The notes beneath the pieces were generated by a model. It did no database searches, was not told where the DNA came from, and worked only from the letters and a program-made list of their open reading frames with translations. DNA of 32,000 bases from Alkalilimnicola ehrlichii MLHE-1 (GTDB taxonomy: Bacteria; Pseudomonadota; Gammaproteobacteria; Nitrococcales; Halorhodospiraceae): the NCBI RefSeq assembly GCF_000014785.1, contig NC_008340.1, positions 1,890,001 through 1,922,000 of the forward strand, written 5' to 3'. A program made the position numbers and the translations under genes. This document shows, piece after piece, positions 586-30,077 of this stretch (its first letter is position 1; the number at the start of each line of letters is the position of its first letter).

Positions 586-1374
586 TTATGCCTCGGCGGT
601 TCCCGCCGCGAGTGCCGCCTGCACCCCGTCCCAGAACCGGATGCGGGCATCCACCGCCTGCTGTGCCGCCGCCTCGGCCTCGGCATATCGATCCGGGTCC
701 CCCTCGCACAGGGCATCGAGTAGCTGCAGCGAGAGCGGACCGTGGAAGTCCGCGTCCAGATGGATGTGCCGGTTGAGGTAGTAGTGAAAGGTGGGCGCCT
801 GAGCCTCCGTCACACCCATGCGGGCGAGGAAGGCCCGAAACATACCGGGTATGATGTGCTCGCGGCCCAGCGCCAGGGCCGCTGCCACGCAGTGGGGGCG
901 ATCCTCACGGATAAAGCCGAAGGTGGTCTGCATAAACGTCCGCGCAGGCGCCGGCACCTCCGGCAGCGTCAGGGCCCGGTCGATGCCCGCCTCCGCGACC
1001 CGCTCCACAAAGGCCAGTGGGACACGGGTGTCCGCCCCCATCTCCCGCATGGCGTGGCAGTAAAGCTCGAAGTGGCTGGCGTGGCCCTGGGCACTGCCGG
1101 GGGGCGCCTCGTCCGACTCCTCCTCCTGCACCAGGCTGTTGATGAAATAGCGCAGGGGGCCCTGTCCTGGCACGGGCACCCAGGGATAGCTCGCAGGCGC
1201 CACCTGGTTCTGGAGGTATTTCACCAGGGACATGAAATCCCAGACCGAATAGATATGGTGCTCCATGAACCGGCAGAGCTGCTCGCGGGTCTCAATGGCG
1301 CCATAGACCGGATGGGCCTCCAGTCGGGTCTGGGCGGCCTCGATCACTTCGGGGCTGAAGGCGGTACGGGTCAT
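586..1374 (-). CDS. DUF3050 family protein (heme-oxygenase-like helical fold)
   Basis: 262 aa. Blocks FMEHHIYSVWDFMSLVKYLQ, SHFELY, GREHIIPGMF, YYLNRHIHLDADFHG and RIRFWDG match my recollection of DUF3050 (PF11251). The start ATG overlaps the upstream gene's stop (ATGA at 1374). Confidence 0.7.
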   Translation of the reverse strand: MTRTAFSPEVIEAAQTRLEAHPVYGAIETREQLCRFMEHHIYSVWDFMSLVKYLQNQVAPASYPWVPVPGQGPLRYFINSLVQEEESDEAPPGSAQGHASHFELYCHAMREMGADTRVPLAFVERVAEAGIDRALTLPEVPAPARTFMQTTFGFIREDRPHCVAAALALGREHIIPGMFRAFLARMGVTEAQAPTFHYYLNRHIHLDADFHGPLSLQLLDALCEGDPDRYAEAEAAAQQAVDARIRFWDGVQAALAAGTAEA

Positions 1375-1982
1375 CAGCGGTTCTCCTCACGGTTCACTTG
1401 GGGGTCCGATTCGGCGGCTGCCGGCGCCCCGGAAATCAGCGGCTCCAGCAGTTCACCGATGGCCTTGTGCAGGCGCTCGGCCATGGCCGGCCCCTCCACC
1501 TCGGTCAACTGAGCGTGGAGCCAGACATCGTCCTCGTGGCCGGCCGCGCGCCCGCCCAGGGCCCCGAGGCAATTGAAGGCGGCGTAACCCGGCATCTCAC
1601 CGTCATAGCCGGCACGCGCATAGGTGGCCAGCCGTTCGTGGGCCCGGCGCACCAGGGCCACCCCGGCCTCCGGGTCGGCCACGCTCTCGGCGGCGCCGCT
1701 GCTCATGCGCTCGACCATGGCGGCCACCAGCCGGCGGCGGTGGTCGTCGTCCACACCGCGCAGCCAGGCGAGCCGGTCCACCATCTGCACGGCGAACAGG
1801 GCCAGCTCCTCCACCAGCGCCAGATGCCCACCGGCACGATCAGTCACCGGCCCATGCTCCGAGATATCGCGCACGGTTTGCGTTGCCATGCGCCAAGCCA
1901 GCATGGCGGCGGCCCCTCCCACCTGCTCCGGGTCGCGCGTTTGGCCGTGGCGGAACCAACGGGTCTTCATCCTCATCGCCAT
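1374..1982 (-). CDS. Hypothetical protein (202 aa, predicted all-helical); no family recognised
   Basis: ORF with high third-position GC. It is translationally coupled on both sides: it starts 3 nt after the Cas6-like stop, and its stop overlaps the DUF3050 start. Confidence 0.55.
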   Translation of the reverse strand: MAMRMKTRWFRHGQTRDPEQVGGAAAMLAWRMATQTVRDISEHGPVTDRAGGHLALVEELALFAVQMVDRLAWLRGVDDDHRRRLVAAMVERMSSGAAESVADPEAGVALVRRAHERLATYARAGYDGEMPGYAAFNCLGALGGRAAGHEDDVWLHAQLTEVEGPAMAERLHKAIGELLEPLISGAPAAAESDPQVNREENR

Positions 1983-1985
1983 GCG

Positions 1986-2654
1986 CTATTCCACCTCCGT
2001 CACCGACTTGTGTGGCATGAACAGGCCACAGCCCCAAAGGCCGCCGTCCCCCAGACCGCGGGACTGCAAACGATAGCTCCCTTCAGGCCCCATCTCGGCG
2101 ACCATCAGGCTGCGCAATGTCACCGGCCCCCACCGGGTCTGCAGGGTCTGCCGGCGGCCGCACAGCATCTTGCGCGGTTTGACCCCCATCGCCGCCAGTC
2201 GGCGCGCCACCGCCTCCATGAACTCGGCCTCGTCCTCTTCCGGGTGAACCAGCGGCACCACCCGGCTGGCGTAGAGCGTCTCCACTTGCTGCAGCTCCCG
2301 CACCCGTCCCCGAGCCAGCCGACAGGCCTCGCCGTCCACCTCAAAGGCGGTGCCCGAAAGGGCCAGCGCCGCCCGGGCGCGGTCCCGTGGCACCCGCAGC
2401 AGCAATTGCACCCGGCGCGAGAGGTAGATGGGCTGGCCCTCGCCCCGGTGCCAGCCATTGCCGCTGACCGGCAAATGCAACACCTTGACGCCGAAACCGG
2501 GCAGGCGGCTGAAATCGGCGAGCGGGTCGGCCAGCGCCTCGGCCAGGGCCGGGGCGTAATCCGCGGGCAGACTGTGCCCCTCCAGCCGAAAGGTGACGTC
2601 CACGGCCTCCGCAGGACCGGGCGCGGGGGTGGACTCATCGGTCTCCCAGTACAT
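1986..2654 (-). CDS. Cas6/Cmx6-like RAMP protein (type I-MYXAN Cas6 family-like), orphan
   Basis: The N-terminus VDVTFRLEGHSLPADYAPALAEAL resembles Cmx6-type Cas6. The C-terminal glycine-rich loop GLGDGGLWGCG fits the Cas6 GhGxxxxxGhG signature and is followed by LFMPHK. The preferred start is ATG 2654 (MYWETDE): GGGAGGG lies upstream and the ATG is 2 nt after the upstream stop. The track start 2693 is an upstream alternative. Confidence 0.6.
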   Translation of the reverse strand: MYWETDESTPAPGPAEAVDVTFRLEGHSLPADYAPALAEALADPLADFSRLPGFGVKVLHLPVSGNGWHRGEGQPIYLSRRVQLLLRVPRDRARAALALSGTAFEVDGEACRLARGRVRELQQVETLYASRVVPLVHPEEDEAEFMEAVARRLAAMGVKPRKMLCGRRQTLQTRWGPVTLRSLMVAEMGPEGSYRLQSRGLGDGGLWGCGLFMPHKSVTEVE

Positions 2655-2656
2655 GC

Positions 2657-2899
2657 TCACCCTCCCTTCGCCCGGGCCCAGGCCTGCAGCCACTGAGCCA
2701 TCTCCAGGGCCATCTCCTCGGTCAACTCCACATCGGTGAAGCGCCTTCCCTGGCGCAAACGTATGCGCAGCATCGGCAACCCACCGGGGTGGGTGACCGC
2801 CTGCAACTCGCAGTCGGCACCCCAGGCCAGGGATAACTCATGCAGGGTCTTTACACCCCCCTCCTCCGGAAGGTCGTGCTCCTTACCATTAAGCATCAT
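2657..2899 (-). CDS. Small hypothetical protein (80 aa)
   Basis: The ATG at 2899 overlaps the TauD-like stop codon (ATGATG/TGA overlap). It ends KGG-TGA 2 nt before the Cas6-like ATG. No family recognised. The track's longer start (2941) would overlap the TauD-like gene by 46 nt. Confidence 0.5.
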   Translation of the reverse strand: MMLNGKEHDLPEEGGVKTLHELSLAWGADCELQAVTHPGGLPMLRIRLRQGRRFTDVELTEEMALEMAQWLQAWARAKGG

Positions 2900-3765
2900 G
2901 TCGCCATCACCCTCTCGTGATACCGCGCCCGGAACAGGCAACGGCCCGGGCCATCCGTGGGGTCAACGAAGCCGGTACGGGTGTGCAGCACGTTATTGCA
3001 GATCAGCCCCTCACCCGGCGCCAGCCGGTGCTCCAGGACCCACGGGGACAGGTGGTCCAACATCTCGCGGAGCACCACGGAGGCCTCGGCAGGCCCATCC
3101 GGCGCCCAGCGTATGCTGCGGGTGCGCGCGGTATAACGCATATGCAGCCCGGTGGGCTCGAGCAGGAAAACGGGCCCACTGCGGTCGCCCTGCTCGGGGG
3201 CACGCGGGTCCGGCGGGATGGTCATGGCCCGGGGGTGCTGCAGGGCCTTCAGGGCATCGGGCCGGGAGACGGCGAGGGCCTGCCAGACCAGCCGGTGATC
3301 CAGCAGGCGGTTGACACCGCCCTCCCGGGCCGGGCGCACGCAATGCAGGATCAGTCCGCGCACCCGGCGCTCTGGCGGATTGTAGTAGCCATCGGTGTGC
3401 CAGTTGATCGGGCGGTCGGTGTAGGGGATGTACTCCGCACGCCGCTCGCCCGCGGGCGCCTGCATCAAAGTGCTGACCCCATCCTCCCGGACCAGCGGAT
3501 GGCGATCCAGGGTCCGCAGCCCCAGTTGCTCGCCCAGTGCGACCACCTGCGCCGGCGTCTGCAGCCGCCCCGGACCGGTCCGGTATAACGCCATACCGGC
3601 CTGCCGGCAGCGCGCCTGCAGCGCCCGACGCTCTCCCGTGCTGAGCCGGGAGGGGTCGCGAATCTCCACAAAGGGTGAATCCAGAAACCGCTGGTAACCG
3701 TCGAGGTAATCGTCCAGCAGGGCGGAGCGGCCGGCGAGCGGCGGCTTGTCGGCGATGGTGGCCAT
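2896..3765 (-). CDS. TauD/TfdA-family Fe(II)/2-oxoglutarate-dependent dioxygenase
   Basis: INWHTDGYY carries the HxD facial-triad motif, and ICNNVLHTRTGF carries the distal His, as in TauD-type enzymes. The preferred start is ATG 3765 (MATIADKPP), preceded by GGAGG. The track start at 3798 is a GTG inside a palindrome. Confidence 0.8.
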   Translation of the reverse strand: MATIADKPPLAGRSALLDDYLDGYQRFLDSPFVEIRDPSRLSTGERRALQARCRQAGMALYRTGPGRLQTPAQVVALGEQLGLRTLDRHPLVREDGVSTLMQAPAGERRAEYIPYTDRPINWHTDGYYNPPERRVRGLILHCVRPAREGGVNRLLDHRLVWQALAVSRPDALKALQHPRAMTIPPDPRAPEQGDRSGPVFLLEPTGLHMRYTARTRSIRWAPDGPAEASVVLREMLDHLSPWVLEHRLAPGEGLICNNVLHTRTGFVDPTDGPGRCLFRARYHERVMAT

Positions 3766-3827: not shown

Positions 3828-3843
3828 TATCCCCTTTGGGATA
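3828..3843. promoter_or_regulatory. Palindromic operator candidate TATCCC-CTTT-GGGATA in the divergent TauD-operon/dsrA control region
   Basis: Perfect 6-nt inverted arms with a 4-nt spacer. The identical 16-mer recurs at 22755-22770. It lies 62 nt upstream of the TauD-like ATG and 144 nt upstream of the dsrA ATG. Confidence 0.45.
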
Positions 3844-3987: not shown

Positions 3988-5259
3988 ATGGCCACTAAGA
4001 AGTCTCACGACACACCGAATCTCGATCAACTGGAAAGCGGCCCCTGGCCCAGTTTTGTCACCGGCCTGAAGCACCTGGCCGAGGACAAACCCATGATCAA
4101 CGACCTCCTGGGTCAGCTGGAGACCAGCTACCAGGACCGCAAGGGTTACTGGAAGGGCGGCACCGTCAGTGTCTATGGCTACGGGGGCGGGATCATCCCC
4201 CGCTTCACCGAGCTAAAGGACGAGAACGGCAAGGCGAAGTTCCCTGACGCCGCCGAGTTCCACACCATGCGCGTGATGCCGCCGGCCGGCATGCACTACA
4301 ACACCGAGATCGTCCGCAAGCTCTGTGACATCTGGGAGAAGTACGGCTCCGGCCTGATCGCCATGCACGGTCAGAGTGGCGACATCATGTTCCAGGGTAT
4401 CGACACCGAGAACATCCAGGCCTGCTTCGACGAGATGAACGAGCTGGGCTTCGACCTCGGTGGCGCCGGCCCGGCGGTCCGTACCGGCATGTCCTGCGCC
4501 GGTGCCGCCCGCTGCGAGCAGTCCTGCTTCAACGAGCAGCACCTGCACCGCAAGCTGGTCAACAACTTCCTCGACGACATGCACCGCCCGGCCCTGCCCT
4601 ACAAGTTCAAATTCAAGGTCTCGGGCTGCCCCAACGACTGCATGAACTCCATCGAGCGCGCCGACTTTGCCGCCATCGGCACCTGGCGGGACGACATGCA
4701 GGTGGACCAGGAGGAGGTCAAGGCCTTCGTCGCCCGCAAGGGCCGCAAGTATGTGGTGGACAACGTCATCAGCCGCTGCCCCACCAACGCCCTGAGCCTC
4801 AACGACGACGACACCCTGGATGTGGACAACGGTAGCTGCGTGCGCTGCATGCACTGCCTCAACGTCATGAACAAGGCGCTCAGCCCGGGCAAGGACCGGG
4901 GCATGACCCTGCTCATCGGCGGCAAACGCACCCTCAAGATCGGCGACCTTTTCGGCACCGTGGTGGCGCCCTTCCTGCCCCTGAACACCGAAGAGGACTA
5001 CGACCGGGTGGTGGAGATCGCCGAGGAGATCATCGACTTCTTCGCCGAGAACGCCCTGGAGCACGAGCGTACCGGCGAGATGATCGAGCGCATCGGCCTG
5101 GTCAACTTCCTGGAAGGCGTCGGCCTGGAGGTGGACCCGAACATGGTCCGCCACCCGCGCACCGTCTCCTACGTCCGCATGGACGACTGGGATGAGGAAG
5201 CCGAGAAGTGGTTCCGGCGCAAGCAGATGGAATCCGAGACCGGCAAGGCCGCCGAGTAA
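3988..5259 (+). CDS. dsrA: Reverse dissimilatory sulfite reductase alpha subunit
   Basis: The N-terminus LDQLESGPWPSFVTG...RKGYWKGGTVSVYGYGGGIIPRFTE is near-identical in pattern to Allochromatium vinosum DsrA. It has a ferredoxin-like Cys cluster (CPTNA...CVRCMHC). An RBS GGAGGAGAGG lies upstream. Confidence 0.95.
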   Translation: MATKKSHDTPNLDQLESGPWPSFVTGLKHLAEDKPMINDLLGQLETSYQDRKGYWKGGTVSVYGYGGGIIPRFTELKDENGKAKFPDAAEFHTMRVMPPAGMHYNTEIVRKLCDIWEKYGSGLIAMHGQSGDIMFQGIDTENIQACFDEMNELGFDLGGAGPAVRTGMSCAGAARCEQSCFNEQHLHRKLVNNFLDDMHRPALPYKFKFKVSGCPNDCMNSIERADFAAIGTWRDDMQVDQEEVKAFVARKGRKYVVDNVISRCPTNALSLNDDDTLDVDNGSCVRCMHCLNVMNKALSPGKDRGMTLLIGGKRTLKIGDLFGTVVAPFLPLNTEEDYDRVVEIAEEIIDFFAENALEHERTGEMIERIGLVNFLEGVGLEVDPNMVRHPRTVSYVRMDDWDEEAEKWFRRKQMESETGKAAE

Positions 5260-5292
5260 GCCCCGAGCGACAGGTTAGCGAGGACGAGAGAA

Positions 5293-6375
5293 ATGGCTGA
5301 ACCCGCAGCAAAACCGCGTACCCCTATCGAGAGCGGGGTACCCGATCCGTTCCAGTACATGCACCCGACCACGATCCGCAACTTTGGCCAGTGGAAATAC
5401 CACGAGCGGCCGCAGCCCGGGGTGCTCAAGCACGTGGCCGAGTCCGGCGAGGCCCTCTACACGGTGCGCGCCGGCACCCAGCGCCAGATGGATCTGGCCA
5501 CCGTGCGCAAGCTCTGCGATATCGCCGACGAGTTCGCGGAGGGCCACTTCCGCTTCACCATCCGCTCCAACATCGAGTACCTGGTGGCGGACGAGGCCAA
5601 GGTGCAGCCGTTGATCGACAAGCTGCGCGCCGAGGGCTTCCCGGTGGGCGGGACCGGCCCCTCCGTGGCCATGATCAGCCACACCCAGGGCTGGCTGCAC
5701 TGTGACATCCCAGGCACCGACGCCTCCGGTGTTGTCAAGGCCCTGATGGACGAGTTGCACGACGAGTTCGTCCGCGAGGACATGCCCAACCGGGTGCACA
5801 TCACCACCTCCTGCTGCCAGATCAACTGCGGCGGCCAGGGCGACATCGCGATCAACATCCAGCACACCAAGCCGCCGAAGATCAACCACGATCTGGTGGC
5901 CAACGTCTGCGAGCGCCCCTCGGTGGTGGCCCGCTGCCCGGTGGCGGCCATTCGCCCGGCGCTGGTCAACGGTAAGCCGTCGCTGGAGGTGGACGAGCAG
6001 AAGTGCATCTGCTGCGGCGCCTGCTATCCGCCCTGTCCCCCCATGGAGATCAACGACCCGGAGCACTCCAAACTGGCGATCTGGATCGGGGGCAACCACT
6101 CCAACGCCCGTGGCGCGCCCACCTTCCACAAGCTGGTCTGTTCCGGGCTGCCCAACAACCCGCCGCGTTGGCCGGAGGTGGCCGAGGTGGTCAAGAAGAT
6201 CCTCCACGTCTACCGCGAGGACGCCCGCGACTATGAGCGGGTGGGCGAGTGGGTGGAGCGCATCGGCTGGCCGCGCTTCTTCGAGCTCACCAACCTGCCG
6301 TTCACCAAGTTCCACATCGAGAACTGGCGCGGCTCCCGGCAAACCCTCAATGCCTCTGCGCATGTGCGCTTCTAA
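5293..6375 (+). CDS. dsrB: Reverse dissimilatory sulfite reductase beta subunit
   Basis: 360 aa immediately after dsrA. It has siroheme/FeS Cys motifs (TTSCCQINCGG, CPVAAI, CICCGACYPPCP). Confidence 0.95.
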   Translation: MAEPAAKPRTPIESGVPDPFQYMHPTTIRNFGQWKYHERPQPGVLKHVAESGEALYTVRAGTQRQMDLATVRKLCDIADEFAEGHFRFTIRSNIEYLVADEAKVQPLIDKLRAEGFPVGGTGPSVAMISHTQGWLHCDIPGTDASGVVKALMDELHDEFVREDMPNRVHITTSCCQINCGGQGDIAINIQHTKPPKINHDLVANVCERPSVVARCPVAAIRPALVNGKPSLEVDEQKCICCGACYPPCPPMEINDPEHSKLAIWIGGNHSNARGAPTFHKLVCSGLPNNPPRWPEVAEVVKKILHVYREDARDYERVGEWVERIGWPRFFELTNLPFTKFHIENWRGSRQTLNASAHVRF

Positions 6376-14868: not shown

Positions 14869-15867
14869 ATGACCAAGTCCCTGCCACCGGAACACCCCTT
14901 TGCCACCGTCATCCGCACCCTGGGCAAGGGTCCCCAGAGCAGCCGCTCGCTCAGCCAGGAGGAGGCCGAGGCGGCCATGGGGGCGATCCTGGACGACGCC
15001 GTCCAGCCCATGCAACTGGGCGCCTTTCTCATGCTGTTGCGGGTCAAGGGGGAGACGGGTGAGGAGATGGCGGGCTTTGCCCGCGCCGCCCGGGCACGGC
15101 TGCAACGCCCTCATCAACCGCTGGCGGTGGACCTGGACTGGCCCAGCTATGCCGGCAAAAAGCGCCGCCTGCCCTGGTACCTGCTGGCGGCGAAGCTCCT
15201 GTCGCAGCAGGGCTACCGGATCCTGATGCACGGCTCCTCGGTCCATACCCCGGGACGGCTCTATGCCGAGACCGTGCTCGACCTGCTGGACCTGCCCCGC
15301 TGCAACAGTTGGGAGGAGGCCGGACGGGCCCTCGATCAGCACCACTTCGCCTACCTCCCGCTCGAAGTGCTCTCCCCCCGTATGGAGGCGTTGATCAACC
15401 TGCGCCCGGTGCTGGGCCTGCGCTCGCCCATCCATACCCTGGCCCGCCTGCTCAACCCGGCGAACGCCCCGGCCAGCCTGCACGGCATCTTCCACCCCGG
15501 CTATCTGCAGGTGCACCTGGCGGCTGCCGAGACCCTGGGCGAGCAGATGCTGGTGGTCAAGGGTGACGGCGGGGAGGCGGAGTTCATGCCGGACACCGTC
15601 TGCAAACTCCGCACGTCGGGGCTCCCCCTCCCCTCGGAGATCACCCTGGGGCCGTGGATGGAGCGCCAGGGCCGCAAGGGACTGGTGATGCCGGAAGCCG
15701 AGCAACTGATGCGCGTTTGGGAGGGGGACCTGGAGGACCGCTACGCCGAGTCGGCAGTGATCGGGACCACGGGTCTCGCTCTGCTGGCCATGAACCAACA
15801 CGACAAACCCCAGGCCGCCTTCGACGAGGCGGCACGGCTCTGGGCCCGCCGGCCGGTGCCGGCCTGA
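14869..15867 (+). CDS. TrpD2/YbiB-family protein (anthranilate phosphoribosyltransferase-like fold, non-catalytic paralogue)
   Basis: Blocks IRTLGKGPQSSRSL, LGAFLMLLRVKGETGEEMAGF, WPSYAGKKRRLPW..ILMHG, LRSPIHTLARLLNP and HPGYL...VVKGDGGEAE align with my recollection of E. coli YbiB. The TrpD GTGGD PRPP motif is not seen. The gene is 15 nt after dsrP and 16 nt before dsrN. Confidence 0.75.
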   Translation: MTKSLPPEHPFATVIRTLGKGPQSSRSLSQEEAEAAMGAILDDAVQPMQLGAFLMLLRVKGETGEEMAGFARAARARLQRPHQPLAVDLDWPSYAGKKRRLPWYLLAAKLLSQQGYRILMHGSSVHTPGRLYAETVLDLLDLPRCNSWEEAGRALDQHHFAYLPLEVLSPRMEALINLRPVLGLRSPIHTLARLLNPANAPASLHGIFHPGYLQVHLAAAETLGEQMLVVKGDGGEAEFMPDTVCKLRTSGLPLPSEITLGPWMERQGRKGLVMPEAEQLMRVWEGDLEDRYAESAVIGTTGLALLAMNQHDKPQAAFDEAARLWARRPVPA

Positions 15868-22753: not shown

Positions 22754-22771
22754 CTATCCCCTTTGGGATAG
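22754..22771. promoter_or_regulatory. Palindromic operator candidate CTATCCC-CTTT-GGGATAG upstream of the small ORF/tusA unit
   Basis: Perfect 7-nt inverted arms with a 4-nt spacer. The core 16-mer is identical to 3828-3843. It lies 98 nt upstream of ATG 22869, in the divergent region shared with the two-component operon. Confidence 0.45.
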
Positions 22772-22868: not shown

Positions 22869-23066
22869 ATGGATCAGACCTACTACAAGACCATCACCCA
22901 GCTCGAGGAGCGCGGCGTGGACCCGGAATACCTCCAGGGCTGGGTCGGGGGGTATCTCCACAATCCCCCGCGGGAGGAGCAACGCGTCACCGCGGCCTAC
23001 GAGGCCGGGTACCAGGACGGCCGGGCCGGGAGCACCGATAGCGCCCAGCAATGGCAGCGCCATTGA
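22869..23066 (+). CDS. Small conserved-looking hypothetical protein (65 aa)
   Basis: Strong G/C bias at third codon positions, GGAGG 4 nt upstream of the ATG, a non-repetitive sequence (MDQTYYKTITQLEERGVDPEYLQGWVGGYLHNPP...), and it ends 34 nt before tusA. No family recognised. Confidence 0.5.
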   Translation: MDQTYYKTITQLEERGVDPEYLQGWVGGYLHNPPREEQRVTAAYEAGYQDGRAGSTDSAQQWQRH

Positions 23067-23100
23067 CCCCACAACCCGTCATCATCACAGCGAGAGAGGC

Positions 23101-23340
23101 ATGGAAACCATGAGTATTGATCAGGAACTCGACGCTAGCGGTCTCAACTGCCCCCTGCCCATTCTGCAGGCCAAGAAACAACTGGCCAAAATGGAGGGCG
23201 GCCAGACCCTGCGCATCATCGCCACGGACCCCGGTTCAGTGAAAGACTTCGATTCCTTCGCCAAACAAACCGGCCACGAACTGCTGGAGAACGGCGAGGA
23301 AGGCGGCAAATTCACGTTCCTAATAAAGAAAAAGGGCTAA
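23101..23340 (+). CDS. tusA: TusA/SirA-family sulfur carrier protein
   Basis: DASGLNCPLPILQAKK carries the CPxP active-site motif. About 79 aa, with RBS GAGAGAGG upstream of ATG 23101 (alternative ATG at 23110). Track ORF 22714..23340 is an implausible Pro/Arg/Ser-rich N-terminal extension. Confidence 0.85.
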   Translation: METMSIDQELDASGLNCPLPILQAKKQLAKMEGGQTLRIIATDPGSVKDFDSFAKQTGHELLENGEEGGKFTFLIKKKG

Positions 23341-25443: not shown

Positions 25444-25501
25444 TGCCCGCCACCCGCGCGACGAACCGATCCCGTAACACCATTCCCGTCAGGAGTTGTC
25501 C

Positions 25502-28426
25502 ATGAGCACCACCGCGGCATCGCAGGCGGCCGGTCCCCGGCTGCCCGAGTTCGAGCCCCATGACCGCCAGGAGGTCAAGACCACCACCTGCTACATGTGC
25601 GCCTGCCGCTGCGGCATCAAGGTGACGCTGGAGGAGGGCCAGGTCCGCTTCATCCAGGGCAACCCCGACCACCCGGTCAACCGGGGTGCCCTTTGCGCCA
25701 AGGGCAATGCCGGCATCATGAAGCAGTACTCCCCGGCCAAGCTCAGCAAGCCGCTGATGCGCAAGCCGGGCAGCGAACGCGGCAAGGGCGATTTCGAAGA
25801 GGTCTCCTGGGACAAGGCGCTGGACGTGCTCGCACAGCGGCTCGCCGAGATCCGGCGCACGGACCCGAAGAAGCTCGCCTACTTCACCGGCCGCGACCAG
25901 ATGCAGGCATTGACCGGCCTCTGGGCAGCCCAATTCGGCACGGTCAACTGGGCCGCCCACGGCGGGTTCTGCTCGGTCAACATGGCCGCCGCCGGGCTCT
26001 ACACCATGGGCCATGCCTTCTGGGAGTTCGGCGATCCGGACTGGGAGCGCACCAAGTACCTGATGCTTTGGGGGGTGGCCGAGGACCACGGCTCCAATCC
26101 CTTCAAGATCGGCATCGGCAAGCTCAAGGGCCGCGGCGGCCGCTTCGTCGCCATCAATCCGGTCCGCACCGGCTACCAGGCGGTCGCGGATGAATGGGTG
26201 CCCATCCGCCCCGGCACCGATGGCATGCTCGCCATGGCGATGATCCACGTGCTGTTGCGCGAGGAGCAGTTCGACTGGGAATACCTGATCCGCTACACCA
26301 ACGCCCACCACCTGGTGGTGCAGACCCCCGGCGAGCCGGGCCACGGGCTGCTGCTGCGCGACGAGAACGACAAGCCACTGAGCTGGGACCTGGAGCGCGA
26401 GGCGTTCGTCGACGCCACCCAACCCGACATCGCCCCCGCCCTGTTCGGCGACTACCAGGCGCCCGATGGCCGCCCGGTGAAGACCGTGATGAGCCTGATG
26501 GCGGAACGCTACCTGAGCGAGGACTACAGCCCGGAGCGCGCCGCCGAGGTCTGCGGGGTGAGCGCCGACACCATCGAGCGCCTGGCGCTGGAACTGGCCC
26601 ACGTGGCCTTCAAAGAGAGCATCGAGATCGAATGCGAATGGACCGACTGGGCGGGTCGTAAGCACGACCGCATCATCGGGCGCCCGGTCTCCATGCACGC
26701 GATGCGCGGGATCTCCGCGCACTCCAACGGTTTTCAGGCCTGCCGGGCCATCCACCTGCTGCAGATCCTGCTCGGCTCGGTGGATGTACCCGGGGGGCAT
26801 CGGGCCAAACCGCCCTACCCCAAGCCGGTGCCACCGCCCATCAAACCCGCGCGACCGACGGCGCCGGGGGAACCGCTGGCCGGCCCGCCGCTGGGCTTCC
26901 CCAAGGCCCCGGAGGATCTACTGATCGACGACCAGGGCAACCCGCTGCGCCTGGACAAGGCCTACTCCTGGGAGGCGCCCCTGGCCAACCACGGCATGAT
27001 GCACATGGTGATCACCAATGCCGTGAAGGGCGACCCCTACCCCATCGACACGCTGATGCTGTTCATGGCCAACATGGCCTGGAACTCCACCATGAACACC
27101 TCCGGCGTGCTGAAGATGCTGCGCGAGAAGAACGGCAACGGGGAGTACAAGATCCCCTTCCTGGTGGTGGTGGACGCCTTCCACTCGGAGACCGTGCAGT
27201 ACGCCGACCTGGTCCTGCCTGACACCACCTATCTGGAGCGCCACGACGTAATCTCCATGCTCGACCGGCCCATCTCCGAGCCGGACGGGCCCGCGGACGC
27301 GATCCGCCAGCCGGTGGTGGAGCCGGACCGCGACGTGCGCCCCTGGCAGGAGGTGATGATCGACCTGGCCGGCCGGCTCGGGCTGCCGGCGTTCACCAAC
27401 GAGGACGGCAGCCCCAAGTACAGCGGCTATCTCGACTTCATCACCCGCTTCGAGAAGGCACCCGGCGTGGGCTTTCTCGCCGGCTGGCGCGGCAAGGAGG
27501 GGGACCAGGACCTGCGCGGTGAACCCAATCCGGACCAGTGGACGCGCTACAAGGAGAATGGCTGCTTCTACAAGTACGAGCTGCCGCTCTCCCACCAGTT
27601 CTACAAGTTCGCCAACAAGGGCTACCTGGAGTGGGCCCGCGATGCCGGCCTCAACGGCAGCGCCGATCCCATCGTCTTCGAACTCTACTCCGAGACCCTG
27701 CAGCGGTTCCGGCTCGCGGGCCAGGGGCTCTACGACGGCCCTTGTCCCACTGACCCGGAGGACCGTCAGCGCCTGAGCAGCTACTTCGATCCGCTGCCCT
27801 TCCACTACACCCCGCTGGAGGAGACCCGTTGCGACGGCGAGGCCTACCCCTTCCACGCGGTCAACCAGCGCCCCATGTTCATGTACCACTCCTGGGACAG
27901 CCAGAACGCCTGGCTTCGTCAACTGCAGGCCTATAACCGGCTGCACATCAACCGGGCCCAGGGTGAGCGCATGGGCCTGGCCGATGACGACTGGGTCTGG
28001 GTGGAGTCGCACCTGGGCCGCATCCGGGTCCAGATCCGGCTCATGGAAGGCGTGCAGGAGAACACCGTCTGGACCTGGAATGCCATTGCCAAGCAATCCG
28101 GCGCCTGGGGACTGGATCCCGAGGCCCCGGAGGCGCGCCAGGGGTTTCTCATGAACCACCTGATCTCCGAGCTGCTGCCCAAGCGCAACGGCGGACGGGA
28201 CATCACTAACTCCGATCCCATCACCGGCCAGGCCGCCTGGTACGACCTGCGGGTCCGCATCCGCAAGGCCGAGCCGGGCGAGACCGGCAGCTGGCCGCAG
28301 TTCGAGACCTTGCAACTCATCCCCGGCGTGCAACGCGCGCCCGCCGATGAGCTGCGCTACGCCGTACACGAACCGGTGCGCCTGCACCGTTCCATGCACG
28401 ACATACTCAACCGGAGAGGGGCATGA
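25502..28426 (+). CDS. soeA: Cytoplasmic sulfite-oxidising molybdoenzyme, catalytic Mo-bisPGD subunit (SoeA-type)
   Basis: 974-aa DMSO-reductase-family protein with an N-terminal Fe-S motif CYMCACRCGIKV...C and no twin-arginine signal. It is followed by a 230-aa ferredoxin subunit and a 315-aa membrane anchor, matching the subunit sizes I recall for SoeABC in A. vinosum. ATG 25502 with AGGAG 6 nt upstream is preferred over the TTG at 25496. Confidence 0.8.
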   Translation: MSTTAASQAAGPRLPEFEPHDRQEVKTTTCYMCACRCGIKVTLEEGQVRFIQGNPDHPVNRGALCAKGNAGIMKQYSPAKLSKPLMRKPGSERGKGDFEEVSWDKALDVLAQRLAEIRRTDPKKLAYFTGRDQMQALTGLWAAQFGTVNWAAHGGFCSVNMAAAGLYTMGHAFWEFGDPDWERTKYLMLWGVAEDHGSNPFKIGIGKLKGRGGRFVAINPVRTGYQAVADEWVPIRPGTDGMLAMAMIHVLLREEQFDWEYLIRYTNAHHLVVQTPGEPGHGLLLRDENDKPLSWDLEREAFVDATQPDIAPALFGDYQAPDGRPVKTVMSLMAERYLSEDYSPERAAEVCGVSADTIERLALELAHVAFKESIEIECEWTDWAGRKHDRIIGRPVSMHAMRGISAHSNGFQACRAIHLLQILLGSVDVPGGHRAKPPYPKPVPPPIKPARPTAPGEPLAGPPLGFPKAPEDLLIDDQGNPLRLDKAYSWEAPLANHGMMHMVITNAVKGDPYPIDTLMLFMANMAWNSTMNTSGVLKMLREKNGNGEYKIPFLVVVDAFHSETVQYADLVLPDTTYLERHDVISMLDRPISEPDGPADAIRQPVVEPDRDVRPWQEVMIDLAGRLGLPAFTNEDGSPKYSGYLDFITRFEKAPGVGFLAGWRGKEGDQDLRGEPNPDQWTRYKENGCFYKYELPLSHQFYKFANKGYLEWARDAGLNGSADPIVFELYSETLQRFRLAGQGLYDGPCPTDPEDRQRLSSYFDPLPFHYTPLEETRCDGEAYPFHAVNQRPMFMYHSWDSQNAWLRQLQAYNRLHINRAQGERMGLADDDWVWVESHLGRIRVQIRLMEGVQENTVWTWNAIAKQSGAWGLDPEAPEARQGFLMNHLISELLPKRNGGRDITNSDPITGQAAWYDLRVRIRKAEPGETGSWPQFETLQLIPGVQRAPADELRYAVHEPVRLHRSMHDILNRRGA

Positions 28427-29115
28427 AGCTGGGACTGGTCATCGACACGGACACCTGCGTGGGCTGTCACGCCTGCGCGGTGGCCTGCAAGCAGTGGAAC
28501 ACCTCGGGCACGCTCGGGCCGCTGACCGACTATCAGCCATGGGGCGAGGCGCCCTCCGGGGTCTGGTTCAACCGGGTGCGTACCTACGAGGAGGGCGACT
28601 ACCCCCATTGCAAGACGGTGAACCTACCCATGTCCTGCATGCACTGCGAGGACCCGGTCTGCGTCACCGTCTGCCCCACCGGGGCCTCCTACAAGCGGGA
28701 GGAGGACGGCATTGTCCTAATCGATCAGGACAAATGCATGGGCTGCAACTACTGCGCCTGGGCCTGCCCTTACGGCGCCCGGGAGCTGGATCGCGCCACC
28801 GGGACGATGAAGAAGTGCACCCTGTGCGTGGACCGGATCTACGACGAGTCCCTGCCGGAGGCGGAACGCCAGCCCGCCTGCGTATTGGCCTGCCCGGCCC
28901 GGGCGCGCCACTTTGGCGATCTGAACGATCCCGACTCCGATGTCAGCCGCCTGGTCCGCGAGCGCCGCGGCCAGGGCCTGATGAATGAGTTGGGCTACCG
29001 GCCGGTGAACCGCTATCTGCCGCCCCGGAACCCGCAAGCCACCCCCACCGTCGAGCCCAAGCCCGGTCTGGGCGACCGGCTGCGGAACTGGGTCAACCGC
29101 GTCGTCCACCGCTGA
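28423..29115 (+). CDS. soeB: SoeB-type 4x[Fe-S] electron-transfer subunit
   Basis: CVGCHACAVACK, CMHCEDPVCVTVCP, CMGCNYCAWACP and CTLC...C clusters. The start overlaps the soeA stop (ATGA). Confidence 0.8.
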   Translation: MKLGLVIDTDTCVGCHACAVACKQWNTSGTLGPLTDYQPWGEAPSGVWFNRVRTYEEGDYPHCKTVNLPMSCMHCEDPVCVTVCPTGASYKREEDGIVLIDQDKCMGCNYCAWACPYGARELDRATGTMKKCTLCVDRIYDESLPEAERQPACVLACPARARHFGDLNDPDSDVSRLVRERRGQGLMNELGYRPVNRYLPPRNPQATPTVEPKPGLGDRLRNWVNRVVHR

Positions 29116-29129
29116 CAGGAGGAGCCTCA

Positions 29130-30077
29130 ATGCATCCACCACTTTCCGTCGTGGGCTTCACCGTCCTCTCCGGCGCAGGCTACGGTTTCATCGCGCTGTT
29201 CGTCATCGCCGCCATGCTTCAGCTCGGCGGACCGGTGGCTGGCGGGGAACTGACTGCTGCCGCGATTATCGGTTTCCTGCTCATCACCGTCGGCCTGCTG
29301 CTCTCCACCGGGCACTTGGCCAACCCGCGCAACGCCTGGCGCGCCTTCAGTCGCTTCCGCAGCTCCTGGCTGTCCCGCGAAGCGGTGCTGGCCGTGCTTT
29401 TCTACCCCGTCGCCGCGCTCTACCTGCTCGGACTGCTTCTGGGCGACGGGGTGAGCCACGGGCCGGTCACCGGCCTGCTGGGCGTGCTCACCGTCATCCT
29501 GGCCCTGGGCACGGTGCTGGCCACCGGCATGATTTATGCTTGTCTGCCCACCATCCGGGCCTGGCACTCCAGCCTGACCCCGATCAACTACCTGTTGATG
29601 GGGCTGGCCCTGGGCGGGTTACTGCTGGTGCTGGTCCGCGGAACCGGCGGGGCCGACCTCACCCCTGTCACCGCCCTGGCCCTGCTCCTTTTGGTCCTGG
29701 CCGGACTGGGCAAATTGCTGCATTACGACTGGCAACGCCGCCAGGCCCACCGCGGCCCGGACGCCGGCAGCGCCACCGGCCTGACCGGAGGCCGCGTCCG
29801 CCTGTTGGATCCGGGGCATACCAGCGGCACCTTCCTCACGGAGGAGTTCATCCACGGCGCCGATGAGGACGGCATCCGGGTCCTGCGCCGCCTGGTACTG
29901 ATGGCGGGGTTCGTGATACCGGCCTTGATGCTGCTGGCCATGGCCACCTCCCCCGCCCTTTGGCCGGTGGCGCTGGCGCTGCCCATCGCCTTTGCCGGGG
30001 TCCTGCTGGAGCGCTGGCTGTTCTTCGTCGAGGCCCGGCACGTGGTCCGTCACTACAACGTCCGTACCGCCGTCTGA
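29130..30077 (+). CDS. soeC: SoeC-type (DmsC/NrfD-like) membrane anchor
   Basis: 315-aa polytopic hydrophobic protein, 14 nt after soeB. Confidence 0.75.
   Translation: MHPPLSVVGFTVLSGAGYGFIALFVIAAMLQLGGPVAGGELTAAAIIGFLLITVGLLLSTGHLANPRNAWRAFSRFRSSWLSREAVLAVLFYPVAALYLLGLLLGDGVSHGPVTGLLGVLTVILALGTVLATGMIYACLPTIRAWHSSLTPINYLLMGLALGGLLLVLVRGTGGADLTPVTALALLLLVLAGLGKLLHYDWQRRQAHRGPDAGSATGLTGGRVRLLDPGHTSGTFLTEEFIHGADEDGIRVLRRLVLMAGFVIPALMLLAMATSPALWPVALALPIAFAGVLLERWLFFVEARHVVRHYNVRTAV

Follow-up and report, generated by a model that had tools for sequence, protein, structure and literature searches.

What is a gene for a Cas6-like protein doing beside dsrAB? The question is raised by positions 1986-2654 of a 32-kb stretch of the Alkalilimnicola ehrlichii MLHE-1 chromosome (NC_008340.1, positions 1,890,001 to 1,922,000 of the forward strand; the whole stretch is called the window here). 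An earlier note on the window had read the product as an orphan Cas6/Cmx6-like protein, recruited outside the CRISPR system (that of clustered and regularly interspaced short palindromic repeats). Our analysis bears this out and gives the gene a context. We consider it very likely that the gene is a cas6 put to new use (exapted): a Cmx6-family paralogue, independent of CRISPR, that is now fixed as an accessory gene at the oxidative (reverse) Dsr locus in Gammaproteobacteria and some Betaproteobacteria. Databases label the family as a CRISPR protein. The neighbourhood of this exapted Cas6 is defined and conserved and lies outside CRISPR, and full-text searching of freely accessible articles returned no description of the Cas6-like gene or of DUF6967, the family of the small protein encoded next to it.

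The minus-strand open reading frame (ORF) 1986-2654 encodes a protein of 222 amino acids (MYWETDES...KSVTEVE). A longer reading from a GTG at 2693 is available, and we take the ATG at 2654 as the true start because all homologues open with M[YFL]W there. The protein matched the Pfam family PF09559 (Cas6) over profile positions 1-191 of 191, scoring 200.3 bits where the cutoff is 26.7 (E 4e-59). In a PDB profile search with 23 relatives the sole match was 8fcj_B, the Cas6 subunit of the Cascade of a type I-B CRISPR-associated transposon (CAST), with E 2e-27. The AlphaFold2 model (predicted local distance difference test, pLDDT, 88; predicted template-modelling score, pTM, 0.84) has two tandem ferredoxin-like, or RNA-recognition-motif (RRM), domains, with beta-alpha-beta-beta-alpha-beta elements in each half. 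Foldseek matched the model best with 8fcu_B/8fcj_B (E 5e-15, template-modelling score, TM, 0.72-0.75), and its top 38 matches at E<=1e-3 were all Cas6-type proteins, including Cas6e, or repeat-associated mysterious proteins (RAMPs). By profile, model and structure search alike, the product is a genuine Cas6-fold protein of the PF09559 family. Its score of 97.5 bits against the NCBIfam equivalog TIGR02807 (Cmx6) is marginally under the cutoff of 98.85, and a 99% identical protein is named "type I-MYXAN CRISPR-associated protein Cas6/Cmx6" at NCBI. The flanking proteins are identical to the MLHE-1 entries ABI56995 and ABI56997. The two sequence features pointed out earlier are both present: the VDVTFRLEGHSLPADYAPAL block lies toward the N-terminus at residues 18-37, and GLGDGGLWGCG (residues 200-210) fits the Cas6 glycine-rich loop GhGxxxxxGhG. 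This loop had been said to end the protein; it is near the C-terminus only, and 12 residues follow it.

Is there a CRISPR-Cas system nearby that the protein could serve? Scanned for tandem and direct repeats, the 32-kb window gave no CRISPR array, and neither the window nor any of 90 related loci gave a Cas8, Cas7 or Cas5 homologue by tblastn with the control DevTRS proteins. As a positive control, a Cmx6 query against the same window and locus sequences gave 90 matches. A contig of the same species, 100% identical in the genes of the Cas6-like region, reaches 10 kb past the near end of the window. There it encodes a rhodanese, malate synthase G, a PAS sensor and ATP-binding cassette transporters, and no cas gene was found in this 10 kb nor in the flank gene tables. 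The search for arrays and cas genes in A. ehrlichii covered these 10 kb and the 32-kb window. No array was present in 1.36 Mb of related-locus flanks either; CRISPR-like repeats in two of the loci (L045 and L059) were rejected, being Met/Pro-rich and Gly/Tyr/Pro-rich coding repeats. The control, cyanobacterial Cmx6 of Rippkaea PCC 8801, adjoins DevT/Cas8, two more genes, TniQ and a mini-array; we took the two genes, for which no Pfam match is on record, as cas7 and cas5. In the control locus L091 the mini-array has three repeats and became visible once the minimum of the finder was lowered to two copies. A tblastn search of the Cas6-like protein against 72,556 plasmids gave no match. Over the sequence covered, the Cas6-like gene is outside a CRISPR-Cas context, as the earlier note had it for the window, and no I-MYXAN locus stands within 10 kb of the near end to account for it as a normal cas6.

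The context that the gene does have is the following.

2896-3765, minus strand: TauD/TfdA-family Fe(II)/2-oxoglutarate dioxygenase-like protein, 289 aa; it opens the operon
2657-2899, minus strand: DUF6967 small partner, 80 aa; it holds the place taken in most genomes by an unrelated 65-aa family, here called s65
1986-2654, minus strand: Cas6-like protein, 222 aa, PF09559/Cmx6 family, dsr-linked clade; glycine-rich loop at residues 200-210, PHK at 214-216
1374-1982, minus strand: U202, a 202-aa all-alpha protein without known family; it begins 3 nt past the stop of the Cas6-like gene
586-1374, minus strand: DUF3050/HamA haem-oxygenase-like protein, 262 aa; it closes the operon and overlaps the stop of U202
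3988-6375, plus strand: dsrA (3988-5259) and dsrB (5293-6375), first genes of the oxidative dsr operon

The Cas6-like gene is the third of five (TauD-like, DUF6967, Cas6-like, U202, DUF3050). The TauD-like and DUF6967 genes overlap by ATGA, the next two junctions are TGA-GC-ATG (2 nt) and TAG-CGC-ATG (3 nt), and U202 and DUF3050 overlap by TGATG. Shine-Dalgarno-like sequences precede the Cas6-like and U202 starts. Judged from these junctions, the five genes are a translationally coupled operon. The gene had been described as wedged between unrelated genes. The 2-3 nt junctions are exact, and the neighbours are operon partners coupled to it; "unrelated" needs correction because other genomes, too, have Cas6-like genes in the company of the small upstream partner, TauD and U202. 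The TauD-like gene and dsrA diverge from a 222-bp spacer, and the oxidative dsr operon, dsrABEFHCMKLJOP, runs from there to about 14853, away from the Cas6-like operon. This divergent operon directly upstream is the key context that had been overlooked.

Is the position beside dsrAB peculiar to A. ehrlichii? We scanned one genome per species with the peptide pattern GCG[LI]F[VMI]PHK and counted neighbours over the best 80 loci, mapping them by tblastn and by iterated profiles made from the loci themselves; seeding by a pattern biases this sample to one sub-family. At least 592 species-level genomes encode a relative (at least 600 pattern matches), mostly among sulfur-oxidising Gammaproteobacteria. 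The named organisms among the best 80 are almost all sulfur oxidisers: Halorhodospira, the Chromatiaceae Lamprocystis, Thiorhodococcus, Thiocapsa and Allochromatium, and also Thiothrix, Beggiatoaceae, Acidiferrobacterales, Sulfuricaulis, Thiogranum, Thiohalobacter, Arenicellales and Sedimenticolaceae. Metagenome and genome look-ups added the betaproteobacterium Denitratisoma. Searching 1.8 billion representative proteins exhaustively with a profile gave 1,778 clusters (clustering at 50% identity) at E<=1e-3, and 377 at E<=1e-30. The neighbours in the best 80 loci were as follows.

dsrAB, divergent, at most 5 kb upstream: 59 of 80 loci, that is 59 of the 65 assessable
Upstream sequence under 4 kb, not assessable: 15 of 80
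dsrEFHC adjacent, without dsrAB: 2 of 80
dsr genes absent nearby: 4 of 80
Small protein directly upstream, same strand: 65 of 80
TauD-like gene upstream: 54 of 80
U239 (a 239-aa protein) immediately upstream: 39 of 80
DsrC paralogue just downstream: 57 of 80
U202 homologue, same strand: 30 of 80

By this conserved physical linkage to oxidative-type dsrAB, the Cas6-like gene is very likely an accessory of the oxidative Dsr locus. The non-CRISPR context is kept in hundreds of genomes, whereas true Cmx6 relatives adjoin DevT/Cas8-Cas7-Cas5 and a mini-array, so the proposed recruitment outside CRISPR is supported. Canonically the genes run dsrC<E<B<A< / TauD> s65> (U239>) Cas6-like> DsrC-like> (rhodanese> or U202>). 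The window shows a minority architecture, with DUF6967 in place of s65 and U202 directly after the Cas6-like gene. It is fully matched in one Halorhodospira locus (L011) and in L088, and in part in Denitratisoma, where U202 is further downstream, and in L012 and L013, where the small partner was not detected. What is conserved is the dsr-linked, non-CRISPR setting and not the exact set of five genes, because the DUF3050 neighbour is species-restricted (it was seen in Alkalilimnicola loci only) and most genomes use s65 and add the 239-aa protein and a DsrC paralogue that lacks cysteines. Four loci (L015, L019, L069 and L086) keep the pair of small partner and Cas6-like gene without a nearby dsr gene, and L048, with upstream sequence too short to judge dsr, has the pair as well; L080 has neither a dsr gene nor the pair. 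Since the pair persists where no dsr gene is nearby, we regard the small protein and the Cas6-like protein as the core unit.

Like Cmx6 of type I-B CAST and type I-MYXAN (PF09559, TIGR02807; chain B of 8FCJ and 8FCU), the Cas6-like protein belongs to the full-length Pfam family, has the double ferredoxin/RRM fold and the loop GxG...GxG-F-x-P, and is about 220 aa long. It differs in showing only 21-26% identity to that Cmx6, and in standing beside dsrAB and not beside cas8/cas7/cas5, TniQ or an array. Further differences appeared when we aligned 84 dsr-linked sequences with 113 cyanobacterial CRISPR-linked sequences, the latter sampled only around the 8FCJ protein. Common to both clades are D19, R87, R130, R181, C209, G200 and G202 of the loop, and G210-x-F212-x-P214. 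H57 is found in all 113 CRISPR-linked members and in 78 of the 84 dsr-linked ones. The CRISPR clade alone has an invariant H49, R43, K135 and R151, K204 and K206 within the glycine-rich loop, and, in the C-terminal beta-hairpin, a basic insert of 10 residues, one of them an invariant Arg. The dsr clade alone has C26, H33, H60, an SGNGWxRP loop with R70, and further R80, R81, R92, an LSRRxRLxLRVPR motif, E142, K162, C165-G166, S182, G208 and H215-K216. Its median isoelectric point (pI) is 6.1 and its net charge -4, compared with 9.2 and +6 in the CRISPR clade.

The residues after the loop require a caution. The invariance of the GCG..PHK stretch in the genome loci is built in, because they were retrieved by the pattern GCG[LI]F[VMI]PHK. 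Among 149 unbiased representatives, 93 have G.G.F.PH[KR] and the rest have HHK, GHK, AHK, PYK, PQK or PCK. From these variants the post-loop lysine is general and the histidine is not (H/x-K), and strict invariance of H215-K216 was rejected as partly an artefact of the retrieval pattern.

The window protein has S49, K57, G204 and L206 and no hairpin insert, and G26 and Y33 replace the C26 and H33 usual in the clade. G26, Y33 and K/R57 occur together in the window protein and its subclade (Halorhodospira, L088; L011-L013), the same subclade that uses DUF6967 and U202 rather than s65 and U239. The replacement of C26, H33 and H57 coincides with the swap of the small partner from s65 to DUF6967, which suggests a partner-linked functional unit. 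The H49 and H57 invariant in the CRISPR clade are replaced and position 33 is Tyr, while the glycine-rich loop and R87/R130/R181 are kept. A comparable case is the Cas6-related protein 3UFC of Pyrococcus furiosus, among the Foldseek matches, which has a Cas6 fold without the usual catalytic histidine and keeps the RNA-binding architecture. Non-catalytic Cas6 paralogues such as 3UFC still act on CRISPR repeat RNA in CRISPR-Cas genomes; the present clade differs from them in its fixed non-CRISPR neighbourhood.

What, then, might the protein do? Cas6-like proteins of the clade keep the double-RRM architecture, the glycine-rich loop and three basic residues common to relatives that bind CRISPR RNA (crRNA), and may, together with the small partner (DUF6967 here, s65 elsewhere), bind a structured RNA unconnected with CRISPR, in a role that would be post-transcriptional control of the Dsr system or support for its assembly. 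We favour this tentatively, at somewhat less than an even chance: retained RNA binding with the small partner is our first choice, and the RNA ligand, the complex and the regulatory role are what we infer. RNA binding is favoured because the glycine-rich loop and R87/R130/R181 are still under selection, because six more basic residues are conserved in the clade (R70, R80, R81, R92, K162 and K216), and because dsr expression reportedly is under post-transcriptional control that lacks an explanation. Grimm and co-workers (2010-2011) are reported to have found in Allochromatium vinosum that DsrR and DsrS affect dsr expression post-transcriptionally and that DsrC can bind DNA upstream of dsrA, which leaves room for an RNA-binding factor. 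Like the A. vinosum dsr accessory genes (dsrR, dsrS and the DsrC/RspA-type paralogues), the present genes are small, biochemically obscure and attached to dsrAB. They have no sequence relation to these, and the Cas6-like gene is upstream and divergent, not inside the dsr operon. The A. ehrlichii protein probably binds without cleaving, to judge from the replacement of the CRISPR-invariant H49 and H57 and of the clade-typical H33. The more specific proposal, that the Cas6-derived protein and its small partner form a CRISPR-independent RNA-binding or processing factor that controls the expression or assembly of oxidative Dsr, is possible, and we hold it with more doubt.

Could an RNA target be encoded in the locus itself? 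A perfect 16-bp palindrome stands out.

3828-3843, no strand: perfect 16-bp palindrome TATCCCCTTTGGGATA, operator-like, in the divergent region between the TauD-like gene and dsrA
22755-22770, no strand: second exact copy of TATCCCCTTTGGGATA; by 100 nt it precedes a small ORF (22870-23067), which tusA and fccBA follow

About 0.66 matches with at most 2 mismatches would be expected in the window by chance. The consensus TATCCC-nWWn-GGGATA (W, A or T) is present with at most 2 mismatches in 45 of 63 dsrA-upstream regions, and a relaxed form is about 14-fold enriched in dsrA-upstream spacers. We considered the palindrome as an RNA stem (6-bp stem and tetraloop) and Cas6 substrate. Its covariation was 0.124 compared with 0.128 in shuffles, 399 of 500 shuffles equalled or exceeded it, and one cell in 264 was compensatory. 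With no compensatory changes to speak of and a symmetric W-W centre, the RNA stem was rejected. The lack of covariation and the symmetric A/T centre lead us to predict a DNA operator of a dimeric factor. Probably it is a candidate operator of a sulfur-oxidation regulon joining the Cas6-like operon, dsr and tusA-fccBA, and the Cas6-like operon would probably share this operator with dsrAB and tusA-fccBA. The small ORF 22870-23067, between the second palindrome and tusA (23102-23340), encodes 65 amino acids (MDQTYYKTITQLEERGVD...) without a Pfam match.

The partner proteins are conserved. The s65 proteins are a 65-aa acidic family with the signature MLxLSE...DTPxNWEDRLE (e.g. L008, 7020-7217), and U239 is a 239-aa family with a net charge of about -20 (e.g. 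L008, 7280-7999). Mean column identity is 60% in s65 and 65% in U239, a stronger conservation than that of the Cas6-like proteins, which are about 35-45% identical pairwise to the window protein. No Pfam, NCBIfam or significant PDB profile match was obtained for s65, U239 or U202; the best were a hemerythrin-like match at E 0.14 and PAP12 at E 0.039. By hhalign, s65 showed no relation to DUF6967, U202 none to U239, and s65 and DUF6967 none to DsrC. In 60 of 61 cases neither functional cysteine is present in the DsrC/TusE paralogue downstream of the Cas6-like gene. The paralogue typically ends in RKGGY (in most of the C-termini examined), whereas the operon DsrC ends in PTGCV. Examples are L008 8776-9114, L004 8809-9147 and L030 10839-11177; the paralogue is absent from the window operon. 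A homologue search for DUF6967 gave 3 sequences. Its model, from 4 sequences (pLDDT 72), is alpha-beta3-alpha with an Arg-rich hairpin, and its nearest Foldseek matches, double-stranded RNA-binding domains and Pur-alpha repeats, are non-significant (E 0.16-1.3), a weak lead.

Several of these observations weigh against RNA binding with the small partner. The dsr clade has lost the basic hairpin insert with its invariant Arg, K204, K206, R43, K135 and R151, and has a median pI of 6.1 and a charge of -4 where the CRISPR clade has 9.2 and +6. Its conserved neighbours are all acidic or sulfur-trafficking proteins, and a protein-binding role fits them equally. Rfam at gathering thresholds gave no match in the window, and the spacer between the Cas6-like gene and the DsrC paralogue has no hairpin shared among 63 loci, the Chromatiaceae sharing a promoter-like motif only. 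The sole conserved stem-like element is the palindrome, with no covariation and with the A/T-symmetric centre that a DNA operator would have. The fold matches of DUF6967, from a model on 4 sequences, fall short of significance. Finally, to our knowledge the catalytic residues of Cmx6 have been mapped experimentally nowhere, and the statement that the A. ehrlichii protein does not cleave is made from conservation.

Of the other explanations, the one that survives best takes the protein away from RNA altogether. The Cas6 fold would have become a protein- or small-ligand-binding subunit of the cytoplasmic sulfur-trafficking machinery, onto which the small acidic partner (s65 or DUF6967), either U239 or U202, and the DsrC paralogue without cysteines would dock. 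Its new Cys/His cluster might bind a metal or a sulfur species. The acidity just described fits this well: the clade is about 10 charge units more acidic, the basic insert and loop lysines are gone, the partners are strongly acidic, and U239 at -20 could fill the former RNA cleft. So do the neighbours (DsrC-like, TusA, rhodanese and DsrEFH), the residues C26, H33, H57, H60, C165, C209 and H215 conserved in the dsr clade, the joint exchange of C26, H33 and H57 for G, Y and K/R exactly at the change from s65 to DUF6967, and the failure of Rfam, spacer hairpins and palindrome covariation to reveal an RNA target. However, the putative Cys/His site is lost in the subclade of the window itself, where the gene is still retained, and H215 is not universal in the unbiased representatives. 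The glycine-rich loop and R87/R130/R181, common to RNA-binding relatives, are strongly conserved, and we know of no precedent for a Cas6 fold that acts without nucleic acid. On balance we think this explanation, the main rival, less likely than retained RNA binding.

An active endoribonuclease is improbable. Such an enzyme would act on a specific transcript, for instance within the long dsr mRNA, setting the stability of its segments, with the clade-typical His33 as catalytic residue. The catalytic His or Tyr of Cas6e and other Cas6 enzymes lies at the N-terminus of helix 1, and H33 is at the start of helix 1 by model and alignment; of 84 dsr-clade members, 78 keep the H57 that never varies in the CRISPR clade, and the fold and glycine-rich loop are intact. 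With Y33, K57 and S49, however, the window protein has only H60 left of the candidate His residues of the N-terminal domain. No conserved cleavable hairpin was found, and cleavage is a sub-case of RNA binding that adds one extra claim.

That the gene is an ordinary cas6, maturing crRNAs in trans for a CRISPR-Cas system elsewhere in the genome with its dsr position incidental, is very improbable: the NCBI name of the 99% identical protein and the span of the A. ehrlichii array scan, 32 kb and 10 kb only, speak for it, but the dsrAB-adjacent position is kept in 59 of 65 assessable loci of many families, 1.36 Mb of flanks hold no cas gene or array, the score is under the TIGR02807 equivalog cutoff, and the residues and insert invariant in CRISPR-linked relatives are missing.

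Whole effector modules are already known to have been exapted, as in CAST and type IV systems; a Cas6 that stands alone and is fixed among metabolic genes in hundreds of species would be domestication of another kind. The database label "type I-MYXAN Cas6/Cmx6" is then a mis-annotation, by which CRISPR counts are inflated in sulfur oxidisers. For sulfur microbiology, what emerges is a group of conserved and unstudied genes that lies immediately upstream of dsrAB and has a candidate operator. It comprises the TauD-like dioxygenase, s65 or DUF6967, U239, the Cas6-like protein, the RKGGY Cys-less DsrC paralogue and U202. If the protein is indeed an RNA factor, this would be the first housekeeping, metabolism-linked role of a Cas6, and it could supply the missing agent of the reported post-transcriptional dsr control. 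In Allochromatium palmeri (L085) these genes are found upstream of dsrA. Genetic tools exist for A. vinosum, and if that species carries the set it would probably allow a direct test of the gene roles.

Some minor observations concern the neighbouring genes. The TauD-like gene is missing from the module in L011-L013, L017, L022, L070, L078 and L085. These TauD-less loci belong to Halorhodospira, Lamprocystis, Thiohalocapsa and Allochromatium palmeri, which are anaerobic phototrophs. The lack of TauD there would fit an oxygen-dependent step, yet Thiorhodococcus and Thiocapsa have retained it.

A motif like CATAAAATT-N5-8-GGGCTTTGAT precedes the Cys-less DsrC paralogue in the Chromatiaceae-type loci L017, L022, L023, L029, L030, L036, L058, L060 and L082; this points to a separate promoter or operator for the paralogue. 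In the Denitratisoma locus (L006, 8631-12582), the betaproteobacterial form of the module, U202 and TauD are joined by two DsrC paralogues that lack Cys, by a TusA-TusA tandem fusion and by a family-less 387-aa protein, which by its size might be DsrS.

Elsewhere the window forms an island of sulfur-oxidation genes, with dsrABEFHCMKLJOP, dsrN, a YeeE-type transporter, SulP and a two-component system, and it also carries tusA, fccBA and a soeABC-like trio. Between dsrP and dsrN in the dsr operon, 14869-15867 encodes a 332-aa protein whose only match is to the helical bundle of Glycos_trans_3N. The trio at 25496-30077 consists of a 976-aa protein that looks by sequence like a molybdopterin oxidoreductase, a 230-aa 4Fe-4S protein and a 315-aa DmsC/NrfD-type anchor; these are the sizes and order of SoeABC, the sulfite dehydrogenase that we presume it to be.

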